Shown piece after piece: positions 28,712 through 54,267 of a stretch of DNA of 64,000 bases. A program made the translations under genes and the position numbers. Source of the stretch: an uncultured Halobacteriales archaeon (lineage in GTDB: Archaea > Thermoplasmatota > E2 > JACPAO01). How positions within the stretch are numbered: position 1 is the first letter of the stretch; each line of letters starts with the position of its first letter. Location of the stretch: NCBI GenBank assembly GCA_964408365.1, contig CAYOZB010000001.1:2157-66156 (forward strand). The letters are read 5' to 3'. Under the pieces are notes generated by a model. The model saw nothing but the letters and a program-made list of their open reading frames with translations. It did no database searches and was not told the DNA's origin.

Positions 28712-28715
28712 ACCA

Positions 28716-35249: not shown

Positions 35250-35261
35250 GAGCGGGTCACG

Positions 35262-37959: not shown

Positions 37960-38108
37960 TTCGTTGCAGGGTCAATGATTTAAGAGGTGTGGTGAGGCCG
38001 TGGTTACTTCGCATTCACATCTTTAGCGTGGCACGGCCAATCGGCCCCGCGTCGGCGGGAACCACGGTCTCGACGCGATGACGGTTTCTCCCAAACGACA
38101 ACCGTCGC

Positions 38109-38996: not shown

Positions 38997-39066
38997 CTAT
39001 AGCCAGGGAAGGAATGAATCGCGAGGCTCAGGTTTTTGCGAACAAAGGGGTGACCGTTCGCGGGCG

Positions 39067-39939
39067 CTAGGGTTCGAATGCTGCGGCTTGTTTGAGAACC
39101 TCGGCGCGCATTTTCTGCGGGCGGGCGTCCTTCGCCAAGCGCTTCTCCAGGTCCGTGAGGTTGTTCAGGAAGGAGAACCGTTTGGCTGCTTTGGCGCATT
39201 CGGGGTTCCAGTCCTTTTGCTGGTTCTTGCCGAGCAGGCGGTTGAGGTTCTTCCAATCCTTCAGCCCGGTGCCTAGTTTTTTGAGAATCAAGGGTGGATC
39301 CAACGACTGGCGGACGCTCCAGAGTTTGGCGGCGGCGAGGAACCGGGCCGGGTCGGCCTTGAAGGGCAGGGAAGCGTATTGGATGACATCGTAGTAGTCG
39401 CGATCGCTTGTCCGTTGCTGGAGGGCTCGGAGCTTTTCCGAAATGGCCTCCACCATCGGAAGGCTTGGCACGTCAACCGGTGTGAAAGGCAGCGATGGGA
39501 AGTAGGATTGTGGGATCTGGGGGGTGGGCCGGGGGTTGAGGAAGGGGGCTTCCCTGTAACTGACGTCGATCGAGAAGTGGTCTTCCGCGTGCTCGTGTGT
39601 GTAGTGAACGTCGCAAGCCCAACTGCCTTCGTCCGTCGTGTGGGCGTTGTCGATCGTAAACGTGATCCCGTCGAACGGCTGCGCAAACGCTTTTCGAAAC
39701 AAGGCCTCGGGATCTTTTTGGATCCCGTTCTGAGTGAAATCGAGGTCTTCGCTGATCCGGCCGAGTCCACCCACAATCATTTTCCGAAGGTACGTTCCGC
39801 CTTTGAACACCAAGAGACGCAGCAATCCGTGCTGGTGTAAGCGCTGAAGGGCATAGGTCAGGACGACGTCTTGTTGGGCGACCTCGACGTCTGTCTGGGC
39901 CTGGTCGGCAAACTTGTTGAGAACCGGGTACGGAATCAA
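39067..39939 (-). CDS. abiEii: AbiEii-family nucleotidyltransferase toxin (DUF1814)
   Basis: VFKGGTYLRK ... GRISEDLDFT (GG-x-A/Y-L and R-x-S-E-D-x-D-F motifs of the AbiEii/AbiGii NTase). Overlaps the upstream gene by 4 nt. Confidence 0.7.
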   Translation of the reverse strand: MIPYPVLNKFADQAQTDVEVAQQDVVLTYALQRLHQHGLLRLLVFKGGTYLRKMIVGGLGRISEDLDFTQNGIQKDPEALFRKAFAQPFDGITFTIDNAHTTDEGSWACDVHYTHEHAEDHFSIDVSYREAPFLNPRPTPQIPQSYFPSLPFTPVDVPSLPMVEAISEKLRALQQRTSDRDYYDVIQYASLPFKADPARFLAAAKLWSVRQSLDPPLILKKLGTGLKDWKNLNRLLGKNQQKDWNPECAKAAKRFSFLNNLTDLEKRLAKDARPQKMRAEVLKQAAAFEP

Positions 39940-40754
39940 CCAATACTCACTTCGCTGAGGATTTCACCCATCGGTTGATTCACTTGCACGTGCCACTGCG
40001 AATCCGTCGGGCCGCCTCGTGGCGAGGAAGGATCAATCTGGACGTAGCCTGCGCCGACACAAGCCGCCAACGTCTTCCGGGCGTTGGTCGGGATGGCAAT
40101 GTCCTTTCTCACGTGATCCAGGAGCCAACCCAAGCGTTGCACCGTACTGTGGCGTCCGAAATGAGTCGCGGCATCCGCTAAACGCTTCCAATTCATTCGG
40201 GGCTTTGCCGCTGCGACGATCTGCGCGGAATTGGAAACGCCTCCCACCAGGTCGGGGCGGTCGACGCATTCCAGGACCGTCGTTTCTTGGTTTGAAAGCC
40301 GAATCTCGACTCCTCGGCGTTCCTGCGTTTCCGCATCCTGGCCCTTGCGTGGCGAAATCACGAACCTGATCTGGACTGGCAAATCCTTGGGGACGCGTTT
40401 GCGCTTCGGGGTCGTGATCACGTACTCTTGGAAACGTTGCTTTAGCAGTCCATGGAGGTTTGCCGCCGTGGAATGGCTGAAGAAGTATGGGTGAACGAGG
40501 CTGCTTCCAATTCGAAACGGGTCGCGATCCGGAATCGCGTCGGGGCCATTCACGCTTGGGTTGACGAGGTACCGGCCCCGGCCGACTCGTTGCAACCAAT
40601 GTTTTTCGTTCAGCCTGTGGGCAAGCTTTCGTGCATGGGTCCGGCTGGCCGAAGTCCAAAGCTGAATCTGATCCAACGTCACCTCGCGCTGGGCCTCTGA
40701 CTCCGCCGTCAGAATGACCTGGGATTCCAAGGGCGACAGACTACGCACACTCAT
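39936..40754 (-). CDS. abiEi: AbiEi-family antitoxin / transcriptional regulator
   Basis: N-terminal wHTH with WLQRVGRGRYLV (the G-R-G-R-Y motif of AbiEi), plus a C-terminal domain. Forms an operon with abiEii. Confidence 0.7.
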   Translation of the reverse strand: MSVRSLSPLESQVILTAESEAQREVTLDQIQLWTSASRTHARKLAHRLNEKHWLQRVGRGRYLVNPSVNGPDAIPDRDPFRIGSSLVHPYFFSHSTAANLHGLLKQRFQEYVITTPKRKRVPKDLPVQIRFVISPRKGQDAETQERRGVEIRLSNQETTVLECVDRPDLVGGVSNSAQIVAAAKPRMNWKRLADAATHFGRHSTVQRLGWLLDHVRKDIAIPTNARKTLAACVGAGYVQIDPSSPRGGPTDSQWHVQVNQPMGEILSEVSIG

Positions 40755-40780
40755 TGGGCGGTTTATCCAACGAGGGCCCT

Positions 40781-40870
40781 CTTATAATCTTTGTAACTAT
40801 AATTACTCAATTAGTAATTTATGGGATATCGTCCGATGTAACTAAAATTACTGAATCTATAATTTTAGGG
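40781..40870. promoter_or_regulatory. About 75% AT island upstream of abiEi with two 19-nt direct repeats (GTAACTAWAATTACTSAAT at about 40793-40811 and 40838-40856) and an inverted repeat AATTACT-N5-AGTAATT (about 40801-40819)
   Basis: Seen directly in the sequence. AbiEi antitoxins are known to autoregulate by binding repeats in their own promoter. Confidence 0.35.
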
Positions 40871-40925
40871 ATTGGGAAAAATGCGCCCTTTTGCGGACCA
40901 GCTGGGACGGCCCAAACCTACCCAC

Positions 40926-42215
40926 CTAGGCCGGGTTTTTCCGCGCCACGATTGGCAACGCCCGCACGACGTCGACTTCCATCTGTGCCGCATCGGTCTC
41001 CTCGATCCGGAGTTGCTTGGCGAACGCGTCGAGCATCCGACGTTCCTTGATCGTGATCCGACCGTCGGACCAGGCTTCTGCCAACGCGTCACGGTACACG
41101 TCCCGCTTCCGTCCGCCTTCGTAGGAACGTGTTCGCTCCACGGTCGGCAGCAACCGTCCAGCGAACCGTTCCGCCCAGCGTTGCAACGGGTTGAGCGCGA
41201 ACAAGAGAAGGCCGCACGCGATGCCTCCGATGAGGTAGTCTTGGCCGAATTCGTCCTCGAAGAACGCTTCCACCACCTGTGACACGAGGATGAAGACGAA
41301 CGTGAACGAGGCGACGACTTCCCCCCGCGACACGGTGACTTTCAGTCGCAGGTCGATGTCAAACAGGCGGGCGCGGGCGAGGGCATAGGTGAGGACGATG
41401 CCGAAAACGAGGGCGTTGACGGCCGGGAAGTCGACGCGAAAGACGTCGAGCACGCGCGCCAGAAACACCAATCCAAGCAAGGCTCCTACGAAGGTCGACT
41501 TGCCGACGCCGCTTTGTTGTTGTCGGGACGCTGCGCGGATCGCCAACACGGCGAGGAACAAGGCGGCCACTCGTGCGGCCAAGTACAGGGTTTCGACGAT
41601 GGCGTCGGCGACCGCGGAAGCGGATCCGACGTCGGTGAGGTAGTCGATGAGGTTCGCCCAATACGATGGGGAGAGCATCGTGACGGCCTGGCTCAACGGA
41701 TAGACGAGGAACGCCGTCGCGACGAGGATCATGCTCCACGCGCGGGGATCGCGGGGTTGTCGCAACGGGGTTTGGAGGGAACGGAACGCTCCCCACGCCA
41801 GGAGTGGCGTCCACGCGACGGAGATGAGTGTGAACATGGGGCTCTCGGCAGCGCTGCGGTCGCCTGCGTACCACACGCTGAGCGCGCCCGCCCCGACCAG
41901 ACAGGCCCAGCCGATCCAGTTCGCGCGACGAGCACGTTTCGGGTAAAGGCAGAGGAACCAGACCAACGCTGCGGACGCCCAAACGGCAAGATGCGTGTAC
42001 AAGCGCAGGTAATAATCGTCCCGGGGCGGGAGCGTGGAGAAGAGCAATCCCTCGACGAGGTCCCAGATCGCGTTGAGGGTCACAAGGATGGCGAAGCTGC
42101 GGTGCCGCGCGTTGCCGGGCGCCAGCGAGAAGACCCACACGGCCGCGGCGAGTTGGAGCAGGGCGCCCACGGCGTAGGTGAGCACCTGTGGGTCCGTGAA
42201 CTCGGGAGGAACCAC
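40926..42215 (-). CDS. Polytopic membrane protein, paralog of the sensor domain of the Ser/Thr kinase at 45868..47790 (no kinase domain)
   Basis: Shares ...RLFDIDLRLKVTV... (vs kinase ...QLFDFDLKLKAAV...) and a C-terminal ...RDVYRDALAEAWSDGRITIKERRMLDAFAKQL... (vs ...VEVYREALRDALGPDGKMDSKQSSALREFRNSL...). About 8 TM. Confidence 0.45.
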   Translation of the reverse strand: MVPPEFTDPQVLTYAVGALLQLAAAVWVFSLAPGNARHRSFAILVTLNAIWDLVEGLLFSTLPPRDDYYLRLYTHLAVWASAALVWFLCLYPKRARRANWIGWACLVGAGALSVWYAGDRSAAESPMFTLISVAWTPLLAWGAFRSLQTPLRQPRDPRAWSMILVATAFLVYPLSQAVTMLSPSYWANLIDYLTDVGSASAVADAIVETLYLAARVAALFLAVLAIRAASRQQQSGVGKSTFVGALLGLVFLARVLDVFRVDFPAVNALVFGIVLTYALARARLFDIDLRLKVTVSRGEVVASFTFVFILVSQVVEAFFEDEFGQDYLIGGIACGLLLFALNPLQRWAERFAGRLLPTVERTRSYEGGRKRDVYRDALAEAWSDGRITIKERRMLDAFAKQLRIEETDAAQMEVDVVRALPIVARKNPA

Positions 42216-42683
42216 CTATGCCACCGACCCGAGAAGCATCGTGGCCTACGCCGGGTGCCGCCATTTAACGTGTCGGTCGCGGGCGTTCGCGACGAACCGA
42301 CTTCACCGACGATGAAAAAGAGTCCCTTAGGGGCACGCGAGGAGAGGGGGAATGCACGTCGTGCCCCTAGGACCAGGTTCATCGGCAAACGCATCGAGCG
42401 GGCGCTCGCAACCAAGGGGGAGCGGAAGCTGTCCTCGGTTGCGAAGCGCTCGTCGAGCATCATCCACGAAGCGACCGAGCTCGGCAGCGCCGCGTGGGCG
42501 GCGCGCCCGCAGTTGCGTCGCAACGTACGCGACCACGGGGTCGGAGTCGTTCCGGGTTCCTCGCGTCGGCAAGATCGCCGTTCGGAGGGCGCCGATCGTT
42601 CGCATCATGGGTAAACCAGACCGAGAGCAGATGGAGTATATCGCGCCGCGGAGGGGGTGGGTGAAAGTGGCCGAAAGTGGGGG

Positions 42684-43020
42684 TCAGCCGATGCGGTTCA
42701 TCGCGACGAAAATGAGGATCGTGAACGCCAGGGTCAGCACCAGGAACAGGATTCCTGCCGGGGTCTTCGGAAGTCGCAGGCGTCGTCGCAGGAACCAGAT
42801 GAGCGGCAAAACGAGCCACGCGACGAGGAATCCGATGAGGAGACGGATCAGGATGAAGAACCACACGTCGGCGGCCGCAGAGGAGTCCACGCCAAGGTAG
42901 GCGAGGAAAAGCAAGCTGGCGAGCCCGATGAGGAAGAACAATGCGAGGCTCCGTTTCCTGCGCCGTAGGGCGTCGTACTCGACGAGGTTGTGGAGGTAAC
43001 GTCGGAAACGTCCAGCCAAG
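42684..43020 (-). CDS. Possible small 3-TM membrane protein (TTG start)
   Basis: The track ORF 42684..43301 cannot be real upstream of about 43020 because it runs through the tRNA. The hydrophobic C-terminal 112 aa (ALFFLIGLASLLFLAYLG...FFILIRLLIGFLVAWLVLPLIWF...ILFLVLTLAFTILIFVAM) has no internal ATG, so a TTG start is assumed. Confidence 0.2.
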
Positions 43021-43074
43021 GTCGTTCCGGCAAATGCCCGCGCCGCGTAAGGGTTCGCCTTGGAGTTGGAAAGG

Positions 43075-43163
43075 CGTGGGGGCGGGATTCGAACCCGCGA
43101 GGACCGCCTTCGGGATCCATTGGTCCTCAGCCAATCGCCTTTTCCAGGCTGGGCTACCCCCAC
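43075..43163 (-). tRNA. tRNA-Leu (anticodon GAG), type II with long variable arm; no encoded CCA; possible 1-nt defect at the T-stem/acceptor junction
   Basis: Reverse complement reads GTGGGGG-TA-GCC(C)-AGCCTGGAAAA-GGC-G-ATTGG-CTGAGGA-CCAAT-[20-nt variable arm]-GCGGG-TTCGAAT-CCCG-CCCCCAC-G. Anticodon loop CTGAGGA gives GAG. The 3-bp D-stem and long variable arm are Leu-like. One C fewer than tRNA-2 between T-stem and acceptor. Confidence 0.6.
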
Positions 43164-43215
43164 GTTCCGAACGATTTTCTTGCCCCACCACCATGTACTC
43201 GTTGGACTCCTGTCC

Positions 43216-43286
43216 GACTGTGTCCAGCCCTCAGCAGCTGGGCCAGCTCGGGGGTCTTCGGACCCCCGAAGCCTTTCCTTTTTTGG
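43216..43286. repeat. Copy 1 of a ~70-nt repeat: ...GACTGTGTCCAGCCCTCAGCAGCTGGGCCAGCTCGGGGGTCTTCGGACCCCCGAAGCCTTTCCTTTTTTGG (7-bp GC hairpin with UUCG loop followed by a T-tract on the plus strand)
   Basis: Near-identical copies at 49905-49972 and 50139-50210. Each lies about 45-55 nt 5' (in the minus-strand sense) of a tRNA-Leu-like sequence. Confidence 0.5.
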
Positions 43287-43384
43287 AAACCATGTTTGCA
43301 TGACCTCTGGCCGGGGTGGACAGGCGACGACAGCGGCGTCAGTCAGTTGGCTGGACGCCCTTATGCATGGCCGCGTCCGGTGGG

Positions 43385-45049
43385 ATGGCTATGAACCAAC
43401 TCGTTCGCGGCCCTGGAATGCTCTTTGTCATGCTGATCCTCGCAGGCTGTGCCGGCGCGGGGTCGAACCCTTCGCAGACCGTCGCTCCGGCCGTCTTGGG
43501 GCCCGGCGACGCCCCCGGCCCAGCCCAGACCGCCCAGGCACCGGTCACGGGTCCCTTGCTCACGGTCCCCGTGTCGGGCACATTCACGAGCGACGGCTTC
43601 ATGCCGCCGGACCAGGTGATCTGCTTCGACCCCTCGAACCCTATCGCCCCTCGCCCGGGCGCTTGTGAAGCGTACTTCACGATGTTCCTCAACATGAGTG
43701 GCACCCTCACAGGCCGGATCACCGACATCTTCCACTTCCACGCGCTCGAGAACGGATCGATCGACGCGGAGGGCACACGCGTGTTCACGGGCGCCGTGGA
43801 CAGGTGCGGATCCGGCACCATGTCCCTGCGCCTGGACGGCATCGCTCCGGCGGATCCGAACCCGGAAATGCCCGGGTACACCCACATCAAGGAACCCATG
43901 CAGACGCTCTTGCAAGGATCCACGACGACGGGCCTTGCGGGCGTCATCGACGCGCGGATCCGGTTCGAGTTCAACACGACGAACGGGCCCGGCGGGGTCT
44001 CAAGCATCCCGGACGGCACCGTGACGGGATGGATCCAGTGCCGATCGGCCGGAGACGCCCAAACGTTGTCCAGCCACGACAAGACAACAGCAATCGCGAT
44101 CGCCGGACATTTCACGATGGACGGCGCACAGACGGAAAGCCAAGCCGCCTGCGACGTCGAGACACGGCGTTGCGAGCTCTACCCGGACCTGTTCCTCGAC
44201 CTCACGGGACCGATCGAGGGCCGCATGGTCGACCATGGGCACTTCCACTACCACGACGGGTCGACCGACGGGTCCGTCGACGGATACGGTGAACGCATCT
44301 TCACCGGCACCATCGCCGGTTGCGGTTCGGGTACCCTCACGCTCCTCGTCGACGGCGCGGCCCCGCCCCAGCCCAACCCGCCCAACGCGTTCCGATACCA
44401 CGAGCCATCGATGAAACTCGTCCCGGGGTCAACGACGACCGGACTTTCGGGCGTGATGGACGCCGACCTCGTGTTGGAATGGAACATCACGGTCCAAGGC
44501 ACCATCCGCGACGGCACGGTCACCGGAACGGTCTGGTGCAAGGAGTCCCACGGGAAAGGGACCATCGACCGAGACGAGGGAGCACGCGCGCAGTCGGTCA
44601 CGATGCGGACGATCACCCCCGGCATCCTCCTTCCCAAGGAAGGGAACTGCGCGGTCGATCCTGCCAAGCCCGATGAGTGCGACGTCTACGCGAGCCAATT
44701 CCTCTTCGCAGATGCGCCCTGGGACGCGCTGATCATCGACAACGCCCACCTTCACACCCACCGGAACGGATCGGTGTGGGCGACCGCGGAGCGGCCCTTC
44801 TTCGGCGAAGTGCCTGGGTGCGGCTCCGGCATGATGACGTTCCGCCTCGGCGGCTGGCTCGGCAGCGTGGACCCCGTCCTGGACCAGCCAGGCTACTTCC
44901 ACCTTCGCGAGCCCGCCATGCGGCTCGTCCCGGGATCGACGTCGACCGGCCTTGCGGGCCTCGTCGACGCCGAACTCACCGGCGACTTCGTCTTCACCGG
45001 CCCCGGCGCCGGCACCGACACGTTCACGGGCACCGTCTGGTGCCGTTGA
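43385..45049 (+). CDS. Secreted lipoprotein composed of tandem ~130-aa repeats of an unrecognised domain (H-x-H ... CGSG ... GSTTTGL)
   Basis: MAMNQLVRGPGMLFVMLILAGCAG (L-A-G-C lipobox). Three to four repeats such as FHFHALENGS...RCGSGTMSL...GSTTTGLAGVIDA; HFHYHDGS...GCGSGTLTL...GSTTTGLSGVMDA; HLHTHRNGS...GCGSGMMTF...GSTSTGLAGLVDA. Confidence 0.55.
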   Translation: MAMNQLVRGPGMLFVMLILAGCAGAGSNPSQTVAPAVLGPGDAPGPAQTAQAPVTGPLLTVPVSGTFTSDGFMPPDQVICFDPSNPIAPRPGACEAYFTMFLNMSGTLTGRITDIFHFHALENGSIDAEGTRVFTGAVDRCGSGTMSLRLDGIAPADPNPEMPGYTHIKEPMQTLLQGSTTTGLAGVIDARIRFEFNTTNGPGGVSSIPDGTVTGWIQCRSAGDAQTLSSHDKTTAIAIAGHFTMDGAQTESQAACDVETRRCELYPDLFLDLTGPIEGRMVDHGHFHYHDGSTDGSVDGYGERIFTGTIAGCGSGTLTLLVDGAAPPQPNPPNAFRYHEPSMKLVPGSTTTGLSGVMDADLVLEWNITVQGTIRDGTVTGTVWCKESHGKGTIDRDEGARAQSVTMRTITPGILLPKEGNCAVDPAKPDECDVYASQFLFADAPWDALIIDNAHLHTHRNGSVWATAERPFFGEVPGCGSGMMTFRLGGWLGSVDPVLDQPGYFHLREPAMRLVPGSTSTGLAGLVDAELTGDFVFTGPGAGTDTFTGTVWCR

Positions 45050-45062
45050 GGAGCTTCTGTCC

Positions 45063-45863
45063 ATGCTGAACTTCAGTCGTGGCGTACGCATGGCGGCCCA
45101 AGCCGTGATGAACGGGAAACCACCTGTTGCACCCATGCAACGACAAGGGGCGCCGGATGTGGATTATGCGAGCCTGGCGGACTTTCTGAGCGCCCTTGCG
45201 TACCCGACGCGGCTGGAACTCCTTCGCGTCCTTCGATTCCCGCACATCGCAAGCGAGATCCGGATTGCGCCTCTTCGCGTCGAACGCGGCGAGAACCCCA
45301 GGCGGACCGCCAGCAAGCAGACGATCCAGGCGCACCTCGACAAACTCGTGGATGCTGGCCTGGTGCGGGTAGAATCGTCGGGCGAAGAGGGGAGAAAGCG
45401 ACGCGTGTACAGCGTCAACAGCCAGAAAGTGTACGCGGTCACCGAGGATCTGAGAAAGGTGTCCACCATCTACGCCGGTCGGGGTGCGGTCGGCGAGGCG
45501 ACAGGCACACTGGTCCAGTCGCCGCCTACGAACGATCCACTCCCGGGCCCCCGGCTCGTGCTCGTGCATGGACTCTACGAAGGAAAATCGTTCCCACTCG
45601 ACGAGCGGATCGCGCCTGACGGCGCGTGGGTCATCGGCCGGCGACGCGGGCTGGCCATCTCCCTCGACTACGACCCATACGTTTCTCTCGAGAACAGTGT
45701 CGTCCGTCGCCAAGGCAACCAACTCACGGTCGAAGACCTGCCGGAGAGCAAGAACGGCGTCACGGTGAATTGGGAACCCGTTGCCAAGGGCGCCCGTCGC
45801 GTGCTGAAATCCGCCGATGTGGTGGGCGTGGGGCGTTCGTTGTTGGTCTTCTCGCTGGGATGA
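45063..45863 (+). CDS. ArsR-type winged-helix + C-terminal FHA-domain protein (phospho-threonine-reading transcription regulator)
   Basis: N-terminus LADFLSALAYPTRLELLRVL (ArsR HTH). C-terminus PRLVLVHGLYEGKSFPLDERIAPDGAWVIGRRRG...VSLENSVVRRQGNQLTVEDLPESKNGVTVN (the G-R ... S-x-x-H/N ... N-G-T-x-V-N pattern of an FHA domain). Confidence 0.6.
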   Translation: MLNFSRGVRMAAQAVMNGKPPVAPMQRQGAPDVDYASLADFLSALAYPTRLELLRVLRFPHIASEIRIAPLRVERGENPRRTASKQTIQAHLDKLVDAGLVRVESSGEEGRKRRVYSVNSQKVYAVTEDLRKVSTIYAGRGAVGEATGTLVQSPPTNDPLPGPRLVLVHGLYEGKSFPLDERIAPDGAWVIGRRRGLAISLDYDPYVSLENSVVRRQGNQLTVEDLPESKNGVTVNWEPVAKGARRVLKSADVVGVGRSLLVFSLG

Positions 45864-45867
45864 GACC

Positions 45868-47790
45868 CTAGTGCAACGCGGCCGTCAACGCGCGACGCAT
45901 CTCGGCGGCGCTCGAAAACCGTTTTTCGGGCGCGAGGGCGCGCGCGAACCAGGCCCGGAGCTTCGACGGCTTCACGTTCCCCTTGAAGTCCCGCAGGGCG
46001 CCGACGCGCATCCTGAGCTCGATGGCGCTCTCGTCCGGCAGGCGCTCGATCACGGGGCGTCCCGTGCGGGCCTCGTACATGGTGGCTGCGGCGCTGTAGA
46101 GATCGCTCAACACGGTGAGCCGCTTGCCGCGCGCCTGCTCGGGAGACATGTATTGGGCCGTGCCAGACCCGGAACCCCCGATGGTGGTCTCGAACCCGGC
46201 GAGCTGTGCGATTCCGAAGTCGGCCAGCTTGGCGCGGCCATCGCGCGTCAGCAGAATGTTGCTGGGTTTCACGTCGCGGTGAACGGCCCCTGCGGCGTGC
46301 ACGGCTTCGAGGGCGGCGAGCACGTCATCGGCGATGCGGGCGAAGGCCGAGTCCGAGAGTGGACCGCTCGTTCGAAGCCTCTCGCGGAGTGATCCGCCGT
46401 CCACGTACTCCATCACGAGCACGGTCTGGTCCCGCACGTTCTCGACGTCGTAGATCCTCACGACATTGGGATGTTCGATGGCGGCGGCGGTCCGCGCTTC
46501 GCGGATGACGGCCGCCTGATCGTCGCTCGGGATGGTCTTGAGAACGACGCGACGGTTCATGCGCACGTCGCTTGCGAGGAACGCCTTTCCGCTCCCACCT
46601 GCGCCGAGCTCGCGTTCGACCCGATACTTTCCAAGAATCGTGGCTCCCGGGACGACTTGGGCGGCGCGGTTTGCGAACGGACTGGCCTCGAGCGCGGCGA
46701 GCATCACGTCGTGGTCGCGCTGTGTGAGACCGAGGCTGTTCCTGAACTCACGAAGCGCGGAGGATTGTTTGGAATCCATCTTGCCGTCCGGTCCGAGCGC
46801 GTCGCGCAGTGCTTCTCGGTAGACCTCGACCTTCTTGCGCATGAGGTAGTCCGGTGTCTTGGAGACGCCGGGAAAGAGGCGGTCGGCAAGGGCGTTCGAG
46901 GCTCGTCGAATGGGGGCGATCGCGATCAGCAGTGCGCCGACGGCCGCGCCGCCCACGAGGATCCCGTACTGTTGTAGATACTGCTGAGCGATGGCACTTC
47001 CAAGCACGAAGGCGCCGACGAAGATGGCGACGAGCGCGCTCCGGGCGACGGCCGCCTTGAGCTTGAGGTCAAAGTCGAACAGTTGGTATCGAAGCAAGGC
47101 GGTGGTGACGAGGGCGCCGAACGCCAGCTGGAGGACGACGTTGGCGATGTCGTGCCCAATCAAGTCGTTCGGTTTGAGAAATATGTACGAGAGCGCCGCA
47201 GCGACGCCGACGTCTTGCGTGGTGAAGGCCAGAAGGTAGGCTTTCGCGCGCCGACGAGGCATCGTCCCTGGGACTGTGCGTCGGAAGGCGGAGATGGCGG
47301 CGACCAGCCCAAAAACCACCATGAACAGGTAGACGAAGAGACCCGTCGTGAGAAGGGGACCGGAATCCCAGGCCCAACCGTGCTCCGGCACCAAGCGTCC
47401 GGGGCCGGTCATGACGGTCTGTGGGAAAAGAAAGGAAATGATGCCGGCCGTGGCCGCCACCAGGATGATCGCGACGCGGAACCAAGCGCGGCGCAACAGA
47501 TTCGTCAACGGTGTCTCGAGGGCGTAGCCGAGGAAGATGGGGTAAGAGGCGAGGCCGCCCCACGCCAAGGCCCATAGGGTCCGGGTGGCATTGTAATCGA
47601 GTGTGCGGTCCGGGAAGAGAGTGCCGAACACGCCCGGGGGCACGGAGATTGCCTTGAACACGATCAAGGCCGCGAGCGCGCGGTTGGTGCCGCGGCGTGG
47701 TCCGGCCGCGAGGATGATGCCGGCGAGGACGAACTCGATCACCATCATGACGATGGTGACGATGGCGACCGTCATTGCGGCGCTGACCAT
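45868..47790 (-). CDS. Membrane-integrated Hanks-type Ser/Thr protein kinase (N-terminal ~8-TM sensor domain, C-terminal kinase)
   Basis: ELGAGGSGKAFLA (G-loop), VVLK (Lys), HRDVKPSNILL (catalytic loop), DFGIA, SPEQ (APE-like). N-terminal 330 aa polytopic. Confidence 0.7.
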   Translation of the reverse strand: MVSAAMTVAIVTIVMMVIEFVLAGIILAAGPRRGTNRALAALIVFKAISVPPGVFGTLFPDRTLDYNATRTLWALAWGGLASYPIFLGYALETPLTNLLRRAWFRVAIILVAATAGIISFLFPQTVMTGPGRLVPEHGWAWDSGPLLTTGLFVYLFMVVFGLVAAISAFRRTVPGTMPRRRAKAYLLAFTTQDVGVAAALSYIFLKPNDLIGHDIANVVLQLAFGALVTTALLRYQLFDFDLKLKAAVARSALVAIFVGAFVLGSAIAQQYLQQYGILVGGAAVGALLIAIAPIRRASNALADRLFPGVSKTPDYLMRKKVEVYREALRDALGPDGKMDSKQSSALREFRNSLGLTQRDHDVMLAALEASPFANRAAQVVPGATILGKYRVERELGAGGSGKAFLASDVRMNRRVVLKTIPSDDQAAVIREARTAAAIEHPNVVRIYDVENVRDQTVLVMEYVDGGSLRERLRTSGPLSDSAFARIADDVLAALEAVHAAGAVHRDVKPSNILLTRDGRAKLADFGIAQLAGFETTIGGSGSGTAQYMSPEQARGKRLTVLSDLYSAAATMYEARTGRPVIERLPDESAIELRMRVGALRDFKGNVKPSKLRAWFARALAPEKRFSSAAEMRRALTAALH

Positions 47791-47982
47791 TGCTGACCAC
47801 CCACACCGGTCTCGGCCGGTTGTCGACCGACGGGACCCGGTTTAGCGACGCTGCTGGGAAGATATAAGGCCTGGCGGGCCAGCCCCGCTATTGCATGCGA
47901 TCTCTCGTGGCGGTTGCCGGGCTGGGATTGCCAGCGAGTTGGCTGGCAAGCCTATTGGGAGGGACGCCCACTGGGTCGTGAC

Positions 47983-49539
47983 ATGAACCGAGCGTGCCTC
48001 CCGTCGATTTGCCTTCTCCTGCTGGCCGCGTTGGCCGGGTGCGCGTCGACCCAGCCCGAATCGCCAACCATGTCCGGCGATGGCCTGGGTGCCGGCACGC
48101 CTCCCGACGGGCCGGGAGTCGTGTTCTTGAAGCCGCCGACCGAGAGGCCTCTAAAGTTCCACTTCGACCTCCATCTCACCGCGGCGCCTTTTCCGCTTGA
48201 TTGCGGCCCGTCCACTCCGGGCACCTGCCGGGAGTACCTGACCGGCTCCGCCAACCTCAGTGGGGACGTCGTCGGGAACGCCGTGGACTCAGGATTCCTC
48301 TATTGGGAATCGGGATCCCGGTTCAACGCCCGGGAATGGTTTCGCGTGACCGCCGACGTGGCCGGGTGCGGCTCGGGGACTTTCACGCTCGCCAACATCG
48401 GCACTGGCGCGCTCGAGCCCGACGCCGGCGGCGTCATCCACATCCTGGCGGACCTCCACCTTGTCGCCGGCTCGACGTCCACGGGCCTCGTCGGCCTCGT
48501 CGCGATGAACGTCACCGGGGACTGGCGTTTGAACGGCCAGTTCGGCTCCGGCGACCTGGCCGGGACGATCTCGTGCGCCGAAGTCGTTAACGACGAAAAG
48601 GCGAAGGCCGTCGGGCCCGGGGAGCAGGCTTTCAAGTTCCACTTCGACGCGCACCTAACGTTCGCCCCGTACCCTGTCGATTGCGCCGCCGCCAAAACCT
48701 GGGTGTGCGACGAGTACTGGACCGGCAACGTGAATCTCACGGGCGGCCTCGTGGGGACCGCGTCCCTCTCGGGCCACGTCCACCACAAAGGCGGCGCCGT
48801 TGTCTGGGCGCAGGAATACTACCGGTTCAGTGGCACCGTCGCCGGTTGCGGTTCCGGCTCTTTCAGCATGGTCCTCAACGGGACCGTGACCGCGGAGGCC
48901 AACCCGGCGGGTATCAGCCACTTGATGGCACGCGCCGACCTCGTGCCCGGCTCCACATCGACGGGCCTTGCGGGGCTCATGCGCCTGCACGCGCTGGGCG
49001 ACTGGCGGCAGAGCGGCCAGTTCGGGTCCGGGGACCTTGAGGGCACCGTTTCCTGCTCCGACGTGAAGGCCCCCGGCAAGGACGCGGCGCATGCTGCCCG
49101 CGAGCGCCCTCTCAAATTCCACTTCGACGCCCACATCACCCTCGCGCCGGATCCCGTCGACTGCAACGCTGCGCGCGCCTGGGTCTGCGACGAATATTGG
49201 ACGGGCAACGCTGAGATGAGCGGGGGACTCGTCGGCAACGCCATCCTCCAAGGCCATGTCCACTACGACGCCGGCACCCGCGCCTGGGCCCGCGAATCCT
49301 ACGAGTTCAGCGGCCAGGTGCTGGACTGCGGCTCCGGCGCGTTCACCCTTACAGTACCTGGAGCCGGCACCGTCGAGCCCAACACAGGCGGCGTCCTCCA
49401 CCTCCAGGCCGCGGTCGACCTTGTGTCCGGCTCGACCTCCACCGGCCTCTCGAGCCTCGCAAGCATCCACGGGAAGGCAGACATTCGTCTCACGGGACAA
49501 TTCGGTTCCGGCGACGTCGAAGTCACCGTCGCCTGTTAG
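47983..49539 (+). CDS. Secreted lipoprotein, paralog of 43385..45049, with three ~150-aa repeats (KFHFDxHLTxAPxPxDC ... AGCGSG ... GSTSTGL)
   Basis: MNRACLPSICLLLLAALAGCAS lipobox. Repeats at about residues 70, 230 and 380, each with FKFHFD.HLT.AP.P.DC, CGSG(T/S)F and GSTSTGL(V/A/S). Confidence 0.55.
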   Translation: MNRACLPSICLLLLAALAGCASTQPESPTMSGDGLGAGTPPDGPGVVFLKPPTERPLKFHFDLHLTAAPFPLDCGPSTPGTCREYLTGSANLSGDVVGNAVDSGFLYWESGSRFNAREWFRVTADVAGCGSGTFTLANIGTGALEPDAGGVIHILADLHLVAGSTSTGLVGLVAMNVTGDWRLNGQFGSGDLAGTISCAEVVNDEKAKAVGPGEQAFKFHFDAHLTFAPYPVDCAAAKTWVCDEYWTGNVNLTGGLVGTASLSGHVHHKGGAVVWAQEYYRFSGTVAGCGSGSFSMVLNGTVTAEANPAGISHLMARADLVPGSTSTGLAGLMRLHALGDWRQSGQFGSGDLEGTVSCSDVKAPGKDAAHAARERPLKFHFDAHITLAPDPVDCNAARAWVCDEYWTGNAEMSGGLVGNAILQGHVHYDAGTRAWARESYEFSGQVLDCGSGAFTLTVPGAGTVEPNTGGVLHLQAAVDLVSGSTSTGLSSLASIHGKADIRLTGQFGSGDVEVTVAC

Positions 49540-49813
49540 CAACGGGTGCCTTGCTTGGCCGGTGGGGCAAGGGACCGCCATCTCGAATCGTGCTTCCCGC
49601 GCCCTTGGCTGTTAGGCATGTGGCTGGCGCCCCTGAACCGCCACAGAGAACGCGCCGAAACGGCTAGGATTGCACTTTGTGGGAACCAACGCCGAAACTT
49701 GTTGATGGGTTTTACCGGGCGCCGGCGCGTCGCTGCGTGCCGCGCCGCGACGACAAGCGGCGCCGCGGTCAGGTCACCGACTGCGGCTCCGCGTCCATCA
49801 CCTTCTACCCTTG

Positions 49814-49852
49814 TTCTCAGCCAATCACCGTTTCCGGGCTGGGCTACCCCAT
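49814..49852 (-). pseudogene. Truncated tRNA-Leu 5'-half copy (acceptor 5' strand, D-arm and anticodon 5' stem, then divergence)
   Basis: Reverse complement TGGGGTAGCCCAGCCCGGAAACGGTGATTGGCTGAGAAC is about 90% identical to positions 3-41 of the tRNA at 43075-43163 but lacks the 3' half. Confidence 0.4.
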
Positions 49853-49904
49853 AGAATTTTCTTTTCCTTGGGCAGCACTATCATGGCCGGACGCCTGAGG
49901 TCCA

Positions 49905-49972
49905 CTTTGTTCAGCCGTCTCAGCGGCTGGGCCACTCGGGGGTCTTCGGACCCCCGAACCCTCCTTTTCTGC
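49905..49972. repeat. Copy 2 of the ~70-nt hairpin + T-tract repeat
   Basis: ...TTCAGCCGTCTCAGCGGCTGGGCCACTCGGGGGTCTTCGGACCCCCGAACCCTCCTTTTCTG. Sits between tRNA-Leu copy 2 and the tRNA fragment. Confidence 0.5.
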
Positions 49973-49996
49973 CTCCCCTTCCACGATGTGGAGAGG

Positions 49997-50084
49997 CGTG
50001 GGGGGCGGGATTTGAACCCGCGAGGACTGCCACATCCAACTTGGTCCTCAGCCAAGCGCCGTAACCGGTCTGGGCCACCCCCAC
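49997..50084 (-). tRNA. tRNA-Leu (anticodon GAG), type II, canonical stems, no encoded CCA
   Basis: Reverse complement GTGGGGG-TG-GCC-C-AGACCGGTTAC-GGC-G-CTTGG-CTGAGGA-CCAAG-[18-nt variable arm]-GCGGG-TTCAAAT-CCCGC-CCCCCAC-G. All stems pair. Differs from copy 1 in D-loop, anticodon stem, variable arm and T-loop. Confidence 0.7.
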
Positions 50085-50138
50085 ATCGAAATTGTTATTG
50101 CCTTTCCTCACGTAGTGGTCGTGAGGACTGCCAGATCC

Positions 50139-50210
50139 GACTGTGTTCAGCCGTCTCAGCGGCTGGGCCGCTCGGGGGTCGTCGGACCCCCGAACCCTTT
50201 CCTTTTCTGG
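50139..50210. repeat. Copy 3 of the ~70-nt hairpin + T-tract repeat
   Basis: GACTGTGTTCAGCCGTCTCAGCGGCTGGGCCGCTCGGGGGTCGTCGGACCCCCGAACCCTTTCCTTTTCTGG. It is preceded (50120-50135) by a 16-nt copy of the tRNA-2 variable-arm segment GAGGACTGCCAGATCC. Confidence 0.5.
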
Positions 50211-50290
50211 TTCCCACGTTTGCGTGACGCTGTGAGCAAAGCCTAAACCGCGCTGCGCCTTCGGCCGCGCCCACCGAGGCGACGCGTCCC

Positions 50291-51475
50291 ATGGATCTCC
50301 AACTCACCGAAGACCAGAAACTCCTCCGACAGACGGTTCGGCAGTTCGTCGACGACGAGATCAAGCCCCACGTCCGCCAGTGGGAAATCAAAGGCGAGGT
50401 CCCGGACTCGATCTACAAACGCATGGCGGACCAGGGCTTCATGGGCGCCCCGATCCCGGAAGAATACGGCGGCGCCGGCCTTGACCCCGTCTCCTACGCG
50501 ATCCTGACGGAGGAACTCGCGAAAGGTTGCTCCTCATTGCGCACCTCGTTGAGCGTCAATGCGAGCCTTGCGGGGATGACGCTCCTCAAGTTCGGCTCGG
50601 AGGCCCAGAAGGAGAAATGGCTTCGGCCGATCGCGAGCGGGAAAAAGATGGGCGCATGGGCGCTCACGGAAGCGGGTTCTGGTTCCGACGCGGCGGCGAT
50701 GAAGACGCGTGCGGTCCGACGAAGCAAGGACTACGTGGTCAACGGTTCCAAGATGTGGATCAGCAACGGCGCCAAGGCCGACGAGGTCGTCCTGTTCGCG
50801 TCGACGGATCCCAAAAAACGCCACGAAGGCATCTCCACGTTCATCGTCGCGAAGGGCCACAAAGGGTTCCGACCCGGCACCATCGAGACGACCAACAAAC
50901 TCGGGTTGCGCAGTTCCCCGACGGCGGAACTGATCTTCGAAGACTGCTCGTTGCCGGAGGATCAACGGATCGGGAAGGAAGGCCAAGGGTGGGAGATCGC
51001 CATGTACGTGCTCAACAACGGCCGCCTCTCCGTTGCGGCGGGCGCGGTCGGGATCGCGCAGGCGGCGTTCGAGGCGTCGCAGGATTATGTGAAGAAACGC
51101 ACCGCGTTCGAGAAACCGATCGGAAGTTTCCAACTTGTGAAAGCGAAGATCGCCGACATGGCGACGCAGATCGAAGCGGGGCGGCTCCTCGTGTGGAACG
51201 CCGCATTGATGAAGCAACGGTACGAGAACAAGGACTGCACGTTCGACGAGTGGACGCTCGCGGTCTCCAAGGCCAAACTGTTCACTGCGGAGATGTGCGT
51301 GAAGGTCGCGGAGGAAGCGATTCAGATCCATGGAGCGAACGGGTACACGAACGAGTACCCGGTGGAGCGGTATTGGCGGGACGCCAAGATCTGCGGCATC
51401 TACGAGGGGACCAATGAGATCCAACGGCTCATCATCGCGCGGCACGTATTGGGGAAAGAGTTCAGCGCGACGTGA
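50291..51475 (+). CDS. Acyl-CoA dehydrogenase
   Basis: Full-length ACAD architecture; ...[15 protein letters not shown]-terminal signature; FAD/CoA-binding regions. Confidence 0.8.
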
Positions 51476-51484
51476 CGCGACGTT

Positions 51485-52750
51485 CTACGTCGCCTTGCCG
51501 CGCGAAACCTGACGGGGCGCGCGCATCGACGTCGGACGGATCCCGGCGACGAGTTGTTCGACCGCGTTGGCGAAATCGTCGATCTCTTCTTTCCGGTTGT
51601 AGAAGTAGAAACTGGCGCGGACCCAGCCGTCGATGCCCCGGCGTGCAAAATAGGAGGTCACGCAGTGGGCGCCGCTACGCACCGCGACGTTTTTGGCCTG
51701 GTCCAAGTACAAGGCGACGTCGTGCGGACCCAGGCCGTCGACGTTGAACGGCAAGATGCTGCCGCGGTTGGCGGCGGACGGACCGTAGAGGGTCACGCCA
51801 TCGATCTCGCTCAACCGTTTCGTCGCGTGCGCGTTGAGCATGCGGTCGCGCGACTGGATCCAGTCACGTCCCACCTTGTCGAGGAACTCGAGCGCGGCCG
51901 GGAACGCGGCGAGGGCCGCATAGTTCTGAAGCCCTGCCTCGAACCGCATCGGCACGTCGTGCATTTCGAACGATTCGCCTTTGACCGTGTTGACTGCCCC
52001 GCCGCCGTAGATGAGAGGGTCGAGCCCATCGAGTGCCTCCGTGGTTCCCCAAAGGAATCCGAGGCCGCTGGGTCCGAGCATTTTGTGTGCGCTGGCGGCG
52101 ACAAAGTCGGCGCCAAGAAGCCGCACGTCGACGGGTTGGTGGGGAATGGATTGGGCGCAGTCGAGAAGGAGGAGGGCGTCCTGTTCGTGGGCGATGTCTG
52201 CCACCTGTTTCGCGGGGATCTGAGCTCCATCCGCGTTGGACACGTGGACCATGCTCACAAGGCGGAGTTTTGCGCCTGCTGTTTTCACAGCTTTCTCGTA
52301 GGCCCGTTCGTCGAAACTGCCGTCCGCGGCGCTGGCAACGGCCACGACGTTGACCCCGAGACGTTTTCGTAGTTGAAGCCAAGGGATCCAGTTGCTGTTG
52401 TGCTCCTTGTCGGTGGTGAGGACGACGTCGCCGCGCGAGAGTCCCAGACCGTTGGCGACGATGTTGATGGCTTCGGTCGCGCTCTTCGTGAACACGATTT
52501 CTTGAGAAACACGGGCTCCGACGAAGGCTGCCACGCGTCGACGGGCGGCTTCCACTTGGCCGGACACCGCTTCGCCCAACCGGTGGACGCTTCGCCCGCC
52601 GCAGACCGGCGTGTCGCGGTAATACGCAACGGTAGCGTCGATCACCGATTGGGGCTTGAGGCTCGTGCAAGCATTGTCGAAATAGATCGGCCGCTGCTTG
52701 GCCCCCACGTTCAGGATCGGGAACTCTTTCCGGATCCGTTCAATGTCCAC
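51485..52750 (-). CDS. Cysteine desulfurase (class V aminotransferase, SufS/NifS-like)
   Basis: PLP-lysine region SAHKMLGPSGLGFLWG; about 420 aa; N-terminal MDIERIRKEFPIL typical of SufS/CsdA. Confidence 0.75.
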   Translation of the reverse strand: MDIERIRKEFPILNVGAKQRPIYFDNACTSLKPQSVIDATVAYYRDTPVCGGRSVHRLGEAVSGQVEAARRRVAAFVGARVSQEIVFTKSATEAINIVANGLGLSRGDVVLTTDKEHNSNWIPWLQLRKRLGVNVVAVASAADGSFDERAYEKAVKTAGAKLRLVSMVHVSNADGAQIPAKQVADIAHEQDALLLLDCAQSIPHQPVDVRLLGADFVAASAHKMLGPSGLGFLWGTTEALDGLDPLIYGGGAVNTVKGESFEMHDVPMRFEAGLQNYAALAAFPAALEFLDKVGRDWIQSRDRMLNAHATKRLSEIDGVTLYGPSAANRGSILPFNVDGLGPHDVALYLDQAKNVAVRSGAHCVTSYFARRGIDGWVRASFYFYNRKEEIDDFANAVEQLVAGIRPTSMRAPRQVSRGKAT

Positions 52751-53018
52751 GTCGACTCACCTCGGAGAGGCTCGGCGAAAGATCATCCCAGACCGCTTGC
52801 GCCGCAGCCATGTCGAGGGTCTTGATGAGCACGCGACCGTTCTGGAAGATGGTCGCCTCATGTTCCTTTCGGACGATGAGCATCACGCCCGCGTTTACAC
52901 GCGGCTCCCAGCCACGCTTCTCCAACCGTGGCTCCAATGCGGCCAAGTCAAGATTGAGGTCCCCCTCCGGGATCGCCTCCAGGGCGCGCGTCGTCCGGCA
53001 TGGCTGGATCAGAACCAT
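52740..53018 (-). CDS. Small (92 aa) hypothetical protein overlapping the sufS start by 11 nt
   Basis: Only the last 92 codons of track ORF 52740..53339 are protein-like (MVLIQPCRTTRALEAIPEGDLNLDLAALEPRLEKRGWEPRVNAGVMLIVRKEHEATIFQNGRVLIKTLD...). The upstream part is Ser/Thr/Arg-rich. Confidence 0.3.
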   Translation of the reverse strand: MVLIQPCRTTRALEAIPEGDLNLDLAALEPRLEKRGWEPRVNAGVMLIVRKEHEATIFQNGRVLIKTLDMAAAQAVWDDLSPSLSEVSRRGH

Positions 53019-53067
53019 CGGGCCCACGCGACGAGCAAGGCGTTCCGATAAACCTATCGCACGGGGC

Positions 53068-54267
53068 TTAGCGCTTCGCGACCTTGAGTTCCTTGCGCGC
53101 CAGTTCCGTTCCGCGGGCCATGATCTCCATCTTTTTCCGGGAGACCTCCCATGTGCGGGTGCGAAGCCCACAATCCGGGTTGATGTAGATCTTCTCCGGG
53201 TCGCCGCGCATCTTGACCGCGTACAGGATCCGGTCCCGCACGAGCTCGGGCGTCTCCAGGTTGTCCGTGTGCACGTCGAGGACGCCGACACCGACCTCGA
53301 AATCGGTCTTGTGGTCCTTGAACAACTTGATCGTCTCATACCCAGGTCGCTCGCCTTCCTTGACGCCAGTTTCCTGGCTGTCCTTGTTCGCGTATTCGAG
53401 CGTGAACTGGGCGCAGTTCTCGAGCTTCGTGACGGCCGGCCACATCAAACGGTAGTCGCTGAAGCAGATGTGGATCGTGAACCGACCCTTCAAGCCCTTC
53501 ACGGACTCGTTGAACGTGTCCACGACGAGATCCACCTCGTCCGGACGCGTGATGGCGGCGGGTTCGTCGATCTGGATCGAATGCGCGCCCGCGTCGACCA
53601 GGGCTTTGATGTTGGGCCGCAACACGTTCTTCGCGAGATCGATACCGAAGTGTCGACGGGCCTCGTCGAGCACTTCGCGTCGTCGTCGGCCGTTCTGCTT
53701 GACCTTGCCGATGTAGTACTCGTCGAAGCTCCAATCCATCAACGTGTACGCGCCCGTGATTGGGATCTTCACCGGCTTCGTGGCGTACTTCTTGATGATC
53801 TTGAGTTCCTCGTTGTGGTAGAACTCTGTGGGCTTGACCGGACCCACGACGGCCTGTTTGAGGTAATACCGGTTGTCGAAGCTCCGCACATAGCCGCGGG
53901 GTTCGAAGTTCTGGATGTGCTTGACCGCGTAATCGTACATCTCGGTACGGTGCTGTTCCCCATCGTAGACGATGTCGAGACCGATCTTCTCTTGCCAACC
54001 GATGGCAAGGGCGGAGGCGAATTCTTTCACCTCTTGCTTCTCCTTCGGCTCGAGTCCCTGCTTCTTCAGAAGCTGCAGCAGGCGGTCGCCGTCCTTGAGT
54101 CGGAGTTCCTTCACCAAGGACTCGGCTTCCTTGTAGGCGGCCGGGGCGACCGGTTTTCCGGACAGCGCTTGGATGCGCCAGACCGGTTTTGCGAGGCTTC
54201 CGATCTCTTGGAGCGGGAAAAGGGGCAACGTCTGGGCGCCGGCGCCGGTCTTGACGGTCGGGCTCAT
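53068..54267 (-). CDS. metE: Cobalamin-independent methionine synthase, catalytic (MetE C-terminal-type) protein
   Basis: Archaeal-type short MetE. ...IHICFSDYRL... and ...INPDCGLRTR... zinc-ligand regions (His/Cys/Glu/Cys). Start at M35 of the track ORF. Confidence 0.75.
   Translation of the reverse strand: MSPTVKTGAGAQTLPLFPLQEIGSLAKPVWRIQALSGKPVAPAAYKEAESLVKELRLKDGDRLLQLLKKQGLEPKEKQEVKEFASALAIGWQEKIGLDIVYDGEQHRTEMYDYAVKHIQNFEPRGYVRSFDNRYYLKQAVVGPVKPTEFYHNEELKIIKKYATKPVKIPITGAYTLMDWSFDEYYIGKVKQNGRRRREVLDEARRHFGIDLAKNVLRPNIKALVDAGAHSIQIDEPAAITRPDEVDLVVDTFNESVKGLKGRFTIHICFSDYRLMWPAVTKLENCAQFTLEYANKDSQETGVKEGERPGYETIKLFKDHKTDFEVGVGVLDVHTDNLETPELVRDRILYAVKMRGDPEKIYINPDCGLRTRTWEVSRKKMEIMARGTELARKELKVAKR

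Follow-up and report, generated by a model that had tools for sequence, protein, structure and literature searches.

An array of tRNA-Leu(GAG) units around chromosomal genes looks like an old recombination scar in an uncultured archaeon

The window analysed here is a 64-kb (64,000-nt) stretch of contig CAYOZB010000001.1, from the metagenome-assembled genome (MAG) GCA_964408365.1 of an uncultured archaeon. It contains a block of DNA in which two complete tRNA-Leu(GAG) genes and a tRNA 5′ fragment, each preceded by a copy of one hairpin repeat, bracket genes for signalling and secreted proteins. The locus is best described as a fixed, recombinase-less array of tRNA-Leu units with captured chromosomal genes, and it has the look of an old scar left by recombination at a tRNA gene, not of a new kind of element. 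The explanation we favour, at a probability of roughly 0.4, is that the cargo was captured through recombination within the 5′ half of a tRNA-Leu unit and that the recombinase is now gone. Both the site-specific nature and the direction of that event are what we infer from the present layout.

The block and the genes on either side of it were delimited by comparison with related contigs:

43060 to 50228, no strand assigned: lineage-specific insertion block of 7.17 kb (unit 1, cargo, truncated unit 2, unit 3), delimited by blastn against the relatives L013 and L004.
42684 to 43034, minus strand: left flank, an open reading frame (ORF) for a small membrane protein, which adjoins the dehydrogenase gene in L013 without a tRNA.
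50291 to 51475, plus strand: right flank, an acyl-CoA dehydrogenase gene (Pfam and homologues) that serves as the synteny anchor.

In L013, positions 186–449 correspond to window 42733–42996 and positions 575–1804 to 50236–51467; in L004, positions 2365–2727 correspond to 42314–42675 and 2758–6180 to 50234–53682. Followed by eye, the L013 homology runs up to 43059 (gggttcgcc) and starts again at ~50229. The dehydrogenase is 93% identical in L004, 90% in L013, 82% in L005–L008, 81% in L002, and 77% in L003. In all of these contigs, which represent five related lineages, the flanks are adjacent, and neither a tRNA nor a hairpin repeat was found near the dehydrogenase gene. Because the relatives keep the flanks adjacent without tRNA or repeat, 43060–50228, both tRNA genes included, is inserted DNA. 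The synteny check proposed by the first-pass annotation, which had been made from the letters alone, thus found the block absent from relatives, and on sequence comparison the tRNA genes belong to the inserted block, with no resident target struck. The repeat-3/dehydrogenase junction occurs in a single relative, L014, the closest of those compared, which comes from a different sample (97% amino-acid and 91% nucleotide identity) and whose contig stops inside the hairpin. Two other dehydrogenases with at least 90% identity, P0348 and P0349, are encoded on contigs of 56 kb and 21 kb. Parsimony favours a gain of the block in the clade formed by the window and L014.

Within the block, three copies of a tRNA-Leu unit lie on the minus strand:

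43075 to 43163, minus strand: tRNA-Leu(GAG) copy 1, 'type 1' (tRNA1; ARAGORN; Rfam 40.5 bits; G discriminator).
43164 to 43213, minus strand: spacer 1, poorly conserved (segment identities), with an A/T-rich box immediately upstream of the tRNA.
43214 to 43304, minus strand: repeat copy 1, with a tRNA-like part (43214–43246), hairpin (43248–43269), A-tract (43273–43286), and an outer segment to 43304.
49810 to 49853, minus strand: 5′ fragment of a type-1 tRNA-Leu(GAG), positions ~3–44, from the unit alignments; the first three acceptor bases are mutated.
49854 to 49902, minus strand: spacer 2 (segment identities), with an A-rich box upstream of the fragment.
49903 to 49972, minus strand: repeat copy 2 (hairpin 49936–49957), directly after the tRNA3 trailer.
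49997 to 50084, minus strand: tRNA-Leu(GAG) copy 3, 'type 3' (tRNA3; ARAGORN; Rfam 54 bits; comparison with L010), the best-scoring copy.
50085 to 50136, minus strand: spacer 3, its 5′ part within a decayed tRNA copy (variable-arm relic 50120–50142, from the alignment to tRNA3).
50137 to 50228, minus strand: repeat copy 3 (hairpin 50172–50193), whose outer end is the right insertion edge.

In the whole window ARAGORN called two tRNA genes and no others (43073–43164 and 49995–50084); both are minus-strand tRNA-Leu(GAG) genes, and the Rfam tRNA model (RF00005) scored both above its gathering score of 29. The first-pass annotation had read the same two genes with the same anticodon. It had also noted that tRNA1 is one nucleotide short at the T-stem/acceptor junction, and the Rfam alignment places this gap between the T-stem and the 3′ acceptor strand. 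Its description of the two copies as only partly similar holds in that they differ, and the differences lie chiefly in the D-loop and the variable arm. The 5′ half of tRNA3 is nearly identical to that of a tRNA-Leu(GAG) on the metagenome contig L010. The 5′-half fragment between the complete genes, likewise reported from the letters, is real: over positions ~3–44 it is 80% identical to tRNA1 and 74% to tRNA3, and it was not called as a tRNA. A weak resemblance to ~49788, which would extend the fragment past nt ~44 through the variable arm to the T-stem, was not significant. The fragment and the 5′ half of tRNA1 (43120–43163) stand in direct orientation and enclose 6.4 kb.

All tRNA-Leu(GAG) copies of the lineage carry G at the discriminator position 73, followed by CC (3′ ends at 43075, 49997, and ~1533 in L010). 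The usual base is A, and a Desulfurococcales tRNA-Leu(GAG) (L009) has A73 and CCA. Given G73, recognition by leucyl-tRNA synthetase may differ in this lineage. We rejected a codon reassignment, since CTC occupies conserved leucine positions in the dehydrogenase.

The repeated unit is longer than the ~70-nt repeat first described. That repeat exists, and units 1 and 3 are homologous over about 230 nt, from the tRNA trailer to 43304 and 50228, respectively, with the homology stopping exactly at the right insertion edge. On the tRNA strand the order is an outer segment of 25 nt, the A-tract, a 9-bp GC hairpin, a decayed partial tRNA-Leu, a spacer of ~50 nt, the tRNA, and an 8-nt trailer. Unit 2 ends after tRNA position ~44, whereas the other two are complete. 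Conservation among the three units varies strongly along this length: A-tract plus hairpin are 89–92% identical, the middle part with a second hairpin 77–88%, and the tRNA 5′ half 74–84%, and the spacers, at 51–60%, are near random. The T-arm plus acceptor, compared between units 1 and 3, is 93% identical. The spacers measure 49–52 nt, as had been estimated, and presumably hold the tRNA promoter. Repeat copies 2 and 3 are 95% identical over 59 nt, so that unit 2 is a mosaic, its repeat nearest repeat 3 and its tRNA fragment nearer tRNA1.

Part of the repeat is tRNA-derived. Repeat 3 together with its spacer can be aligned to tRNA3 over the stretch between position 8 (GGCCCAG) and the T-stem start with a score of 36, as against 14.8 ± 2.2 for shuffled sequences, none of which scored as high (0/500). 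Because this alignment stands above all 500 shuffles, the '70-nt repeat' is in part a decayed 5′ copy of tRNA-Leu, and the repeat as a whole is probably the upstream portion of a duplicated tRNA unit, not an independent dispersed element. Two further derivations were rejected: the similarity of the A-tract and outer segment to the tRNA promoter was not significant, nor was an alignment of the hairpin to the T-arm of tRNA1.

Scans with the tRNA pattern found one unrelated Desulfurococcales tRNA (L009), one metagenome contig (L010), and nothing among viral contigs. L010 carries a type-3-like tRNA-Leu(GAG) with the architecture of unit 3 (region 1531–1697, minus strand), adjoining guaAA. It, too, has a partial copy of its own anticodon and variable arm (29 nt, 27/29 identical), which lies 42 nt upstream of the tRNA in the local alignment, or 34–35 nt upstream if a weaker resemblance is followed to the T-stem start, as in unit 3. 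The contig stops 77 nt upstream of the tRNA. In the relatives L015–L018, whose GuaAA is 90% and 81% identical, no tRNA was found in the guaAA neighbourhood, which led us to reject the L010 site as a 'native' tRNA-Leu locus. Because the L010 unit adjoins guaAA and is absent there in L015–L018, the tRNA-Leu(GAG) unit sits at different, lineage-specific loci.

Between truncated unit 2 and unit 1 lie 6.4 kb of cargo, which encode two secreted repeat proteins, a regulator with a helix-turn-helix (HTH) and an FHA domain, and a Ser/Thr kinase:

43391 to 45049, plus strand: secreted or lipoprotein-like protein with three ~160-aa repeats (CGSG motif), from its ORF and internal repeats.
44952 to 45863, plus strand: HTH (ArsR/MarR-like) and FHA-domain regulator (Pfam FHA 2.4e-06, HTH_20 5.5e-05; NCBIfam).
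45868 to 47790, minus strand: Ser/Thr protein kinase with a C-terminal Pkinase domain (Pfam Pkinase 6.6e-43).
47983 to 49539, plus strand: second secreted protein with three 160-aa repeats (480-nt DNA period), from its internal repeats.

The protein at 43391–45049 had no match in Pfam, PHROGs, or NCBIfam, and the true start of the HTH-FHA regulator is probably downstream of 44952. The N-terminal ~380 aa of the kinase match no family, and its few full-length homologues occur only in related archaeal MAGs, at 65–51% identity. Paralogues of the kinase (57–58%) are present in the chromosome of another MAG, GCA_964643795.1 (L011/L012), without tRNA or repeat; their neighbours there are an FHA protein and homologues that have the secreted domain only once. 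The ~160-aa secreted domain (CGSG and GSTSTGL motifs), triple in the block, forms single-domain proteins of ~200 aa there (L011 2930–3526, 6848–8149, and 14680–15315; also L012). By this comparison, kinase, FHA protein, and secreted domain look like a recurrent module. We rejected the idea that the fragment had cut the second secreted-protein gene, leaving a fourth repeat at 49766–49805, since the gene has a natural end after repeat 3 and the 13-aa match (E = 0.16) overlaps tRNA-derived sequence. In the 250-nt non-coding stretch between that gene and the fragment, a GC-rich inverted repeat, GCCGCGCCGCG...CGCGGCGCCGCGG, lies at 49739–49780; its one Rfam match is weak and sub-threshold (AS1726, 25 bits against a gathering score of 50).

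Taken together, a promoter with a tRNA 5′ part ending at nt ~44, then cargo, then a second upstream region with a complete tRNA-Leu make up the geometry of a 5′-half integration, and it is for this reason that we favour recombination within the tRNA 5′ half. In such an event, an incoming DNA segment with its own unit upstream part and tRNA 5′ half would have joined a chromosomal tRNA-Leu unit. A crossover within the 5′ half would have displaced the old promoter and 5′ half, now seen as the fragment, and the joining would have rebuilt a complete gene, tRNA1. The recombinase would then have been lost, or would have acted in trans, leaving the element fixed. Older partial copies stand upstream of every tRNA-Leu, including that at another lineage's locus, and could be traces of earlier events; they suggest, on sequence resemblance, that such events recur at tRNA-Leu.

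There is archaeal precedent. The integrases of pTN3-like elements in Thermococcales use a minimal attachment (att) site of tRNA-Leu nt 2–44, with 41 bp shared, and their integration splits their own integrase gene and rebuilds the tRNA away from its original promoter, which stays with the displaced 5′ part (PMC5495485, PMC8371274). Integration into a tRNA 5′ half is a rare mode (PMC6563490); a review describes pTN3-like integrases as unique among archaea in using this site and cites isolated 5′-side cases in other archaea. The locus described here resembles the pTN3/TKV4-like plasmids, which have an SSV-type 'suicidal' tyrosine integrase, in its tRNA-Leu target and 5′-half att: the fragment spans positions ~3–44 against Leu2–44, and the complete gene has its own upstream DNA. 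It differs in having no integrase and no int(N) or int(C) remnant overlapping the repeats, in cargo without plasmid or virus genes, and in its host, which is a mesophile-type, GC-rich, Thermoplasmatota-like archaeon. With classical tRNA-linked islands and proviruses, described as integrating at the 3′ end of the tRNA (Williams 2002, as cited in PMC6563490 and PMC8371274), it shares a variable segment beside a tRNA that is bounded by a direct repeat in the form of a partial tRNA copy and is absent in relatives, and independent neighbouring insertions, one with a toxin-antitoxin pair, that mark a hot spot. Here, however, the partial copy is the 5′ and not the 3′ part, no integrase is adjacent, and the tRNAs lie within the inserted DNA. 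The several successive partial copies in direct orientation at one locus (decayed copies and fragment) recall arrays in which element after element has integrated at a single att site (Krupovic et al. 2019, PMC6563490). Unlike in such arrays, only one interval holds cargo, and the other partial copies lie ~35–50 nt upstream of the next tRNA with no element between.

A number of observations weigh against this explanation. When all long ORFs of either strand across 38.9–50.3 kb were searched with Pfam, PHROGs, and NCBIfam, neither a mobile-element gene nor an integrase, intact or split, was found, in line with the integrase-free impression gained from the letters. We rejected a split, suicidal integrase because antisense and read-through ORFs across the units have no recombinase similarity: a single minus-strand ORF of 80 aa or more, 42684–43301, crosses a tRNA copy (tRNA1) and has none, no ORF of that strand and length runs through the fragment, and the DNA upstream of tRNA1 is repeat, not coding. 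The repeats are 8–26% diverged, so that the integration would be old or its partners already different, and the direct repeat reaches ~130 nt upstream of the tRNA, well past a normal att site. No target-site duplication was seen at the block ends. The site has no target tRNA in relatives, which leaves an earlier arrival of the tRNA unit unexplained, and an empty attB (an uninterrupted tRNA with the island absent) was not found, the relatives without the island being also without the tRNA. The cargo is neither of mobile type nor atypical in composition: the block has a host-like GC content of 64–68% against 61–65% in the flanks, its genes belong to a module found in a relative's chromosome with no tRNA nearby, and it has no plasmid, phage, or IMG/VR relatives beyond kinase-domain similarity, on which ground we rejected a plasmid, phage, or virus origin. 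Any structural RNA role for the repeat is unproven, the three full copies and one partial copy showing no compensatory changes. Because no integrase, empty attB, or mobile-type cargo was found, we do not file the locus as a pTN3-like element. Of the integration into the 5′ part of a tRNA gene first proposed, the layout stands, as do the absence of the segment from relatives and the archaeal precedent; a resident target tRNA does not.

The main rival dispenses with a site-specific event. The first-pass annotation had named tandem tRNA duplication as an alternative, and it is a live rival, if a somewhat doubtful one: the tRNA-Leu(GAG) unit would have been duplicated by unequal crossing-over or slippage, the copies would have decayed into partial copies and the fragment, and the cargo would have been placed between them by illegitimate or homologous recombination, or by deletion of the 3′ half of the middle tRNA. 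The head-to-tail arrangement of units 3 and 2, with ~25 nt from the tRNA3 trailer to repeat 2, fits such a history, as does the near identity of repeats 2 and 3. So do the missing integrase and mobile-element genes, a cargo that resembles the lineage's ordinary chromosomal genes at host-like GC, and a homology that covers the unit from end to end, with upstream DNA superfluous to an att site. Duplication leaves unexplained the end of the truncated copy at the limit of a known 5′-half att site (nt ~44), the exact position of the cargo, with a 5′ fragment on one side and a complete unit in direct orientation on the other, and the arrival of the entire block between two genes that five relatives keep adjacent. 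An assembly artefact, in which a MAG contig was misjoined across tRNA units and the bracketing of the cargo is unreal, is very improbable. Repeats of ~200 nt are typical breakpoints of short-read assemblers, the Logan contig L001 begins only at ~48900, L010 and L014 end inside or beside a unit, and the unit 1 side is known from a single 70-kb contig. Yet the copies are too diverged to be collapsible, L001 repeats the order of cargo end, fragment, unit 2, unit 3, and dehydrogenase, L014 shows the repeat-3/dehydrogenase junction in another sample, and the left-flank homology of L013 reaches the tRNA1 trailer.

The repeat itself also has to be accounted for. The three hairpin-repeat copies reported earlier were recovered in two ways: the 24-nt hairpin core TTCGGGGGTCCGAAGACCCCCGAG (minus strand) occurs with at most one mismatch at 43247–43270, 49935–49958, and 50171–50194, with 0 matches in 100 shuffles, and an nhmmer profile of the repeat found the same three copies and no others in the window (E 1e-22 to 1e-29), all tRNA-linked. 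The repeat had no copies in ~146 kb of related loci (L002–L013, L015–L018), and the exact pattern had 0 matches in collections of genome and metagenome contigs. A looser hairpin pattern matched viral contigs 16 times, in each case a generic phage terminator of A-run and hairpin, with no similarity beyond the hairpin. In an Rfam 15 search of the repeat only tRNA exceeded threshold; the sub-threshold matches of the hairpin were at chance level (E 0.5–9.5), far under gathering scores. Folded on the plus strand, all three copies form two adjacent stem-loops followed by a T-rich tail, with z-scores of −3.4 to −3.6. Stem-loop A has 10 bp, among them three G·U pairs for which the minus strand has no equivalent. 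In stem-loop B a perfect GC helix of 9 bp carries a cUUCGg tetraloop in copies 1 and 2 and L014 (3/4 copies). The T-tract is weaker in copy 2 than in copies 1 and 3. Since the hairpin is invariant among copies, covariation neither supports nor refutes the structure. That A-tract and hairpin are conserved next to near-random spacers speaks for either constraint or local gene conversion, and on that contrast the element is probably functional.

The host bears on what that function could be. Among named proteins, the nearest homologues of the flanking dehydrogenase come from MAGs of Thermoplasmatota/Euryarchaeota, and related loci carry archaeal markers: L7Ae, S28e, and L24e in L003, NurA/DUF87 in L002, and Mre11-Rad50-like genes in L002 and L003. 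By these matches the host is an archaeon, Thermoplasmatota-like; the sequence of the window is metagenomic (Logan SRR6868922 and an NCBI contig of 70,302 nt). With an archaeal host, the logic of sigma-70 promoters and rho-independent terminators is inapplicable, which disposes of the bidirectional terminator or tRNA leader, in the bacterial sense, that had been offered as an alternative. A scan for sigma-70 promoters returned 0 sites, and one for terminators did no better than chance, so the bacterial reading was rejected on all three grounds. Like bacterial intrinsic terminators, each repeat has on the plus strand its perfect GC hairpin and T-rich tail. We do not count them as such, given the archaeal host and the lack of a co-oriented gene upstream of copies 1 and 3, which follow only the antisense of a tRNA; copy 2 alone lies downstream of a co-oriented gene, by ~400 nt. 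Nowhere else in the 64 kb is a GC hairpin followed by a T-rich tail, so this is not the genome's general terminator style. The most likely role we infer is that the plus-strand hairpin and U-tract stop rightward transcription leaving the tRNA promoter region. A replication-origin reading, with the repeats as origin recognition boxes (ORB), was rejected because the repeats are direct, not inverted, and no AT-rich stretch is present (GC at least 62%); no orc1/cdc6 was found among neighbouring genes with a family match.

Two further explanations start from the unit rather than from an integration. In one, A-tract and hairpin are the functional core and the island layout is secondary: they would specify a ~90-nt small RNA on the plus strand, transcribed out of the tRNA promoter region in the direction away from the tRNA, or else a palindromic site, travelling with tRNA-Leu genes, that binds a protein or acts as an insulator. 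The small RNA would comprise the two stem-loops and a U-tract, and the sequence of its 5′ part would be antisense to tRNA-Leu in the D, anticodon, and variable regions. We consider this unlikely as an account of the locus, although it is compatible with either history. The even conservation of the core in all units speaks for it, as do a plus-strand fold with z ~−3.5, strand-specific G·U pairs and a recurrent tetraloop, and an element that is unique in the window and matches no Rfam family. On the other side, the invariant hairpin is known from three paralogous copies and one partial orthologous copy and offers no covariation, gene conversion between nearby repeats could give equal conservation, and pattern scans of genome, metagenome, and viral collections returned no further homologues. 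In the other, the ~230-nt unit would be a cassette able to relocate, and it might encode a divergent ~90-nt RNA whose sequence is partly antisense to tRNA-Leu. This is quite improbable in our estimation. It would fit the presence of the unit, with the same inner architecture, beside the acyl-CoA dehydrogenase gene in the window and L014 and beside guaAA in L010, its absence from the syntenic sites of other relatives, and the coincidence of unit ends with insertion boundaries.

The surroundings of the block are themselves variable. An AbiEii toxin/AbiEi antitoxin pair (39067–40754, minus strand) lies in a separate 3.3-kb insertion, 38996–42314, which is absent from L004 and has a GC content of ~57% against 63–66% around it. 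The 429-aa ORF beside the pair (40926–42215) encodes a multi-pass membrane protein without an assigned family; the ORF at 40926–42264 had been considered as a hidden integrase and was rejected for the same reason. Further left, between TldD2 and a gene for an HTH/DUF7347 protein, a 12-kb glycosylation cluster (25913–38083) encodes a 1248-aa GT87/GH99-like protein, an epimerase, a PMT_2-like protein, an acyltransferase, and a methyltransferase. The cluster is missing at that position in L002, L003, and L004 and present in the JGI contig of P0005 (sample 3300071358), where a 348-nt gap precedes the dehydrogenase gene. A gene of ~93–110 aa (window 42327–42608, minus strand), which in relatives always lies between the HTH/DUF7347 gene and the dehydrogenase, is conserved and here stands between two independent insertions. 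Because the AbiEii/AbiEi insertion and the glycosylation cluster are also absent from L004, the neighbourhood of the block is an insertion hot spot.

If recombination within the tRNA 5′ half is the true explanation, then 5′-half integration at tRNA-Leu extends to a GC-rich, uncultured, Thermoplasmatota-like lineage, and such events would fix ordinary signalling and secretion genes in the chromosome, leaving layered partial-tRNA scars. Current concepts would be unchanged unless the unit proves to be a mobile cassette or to encode a small RNA. As a mobile cassette, it would mean that an essential tRNA gene moves between intergenic sites and serves as a landing site at which genes are captured, all with no recognisable recombinase. 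The conserved hairpin and U-tract are a candidate tRNA-linked regulatory or insulating element in Archaea, and the occurrence of the tRNA-Leu(GAG) unit at different loci raises the question of how essential single-copy tRNA genes relocate.

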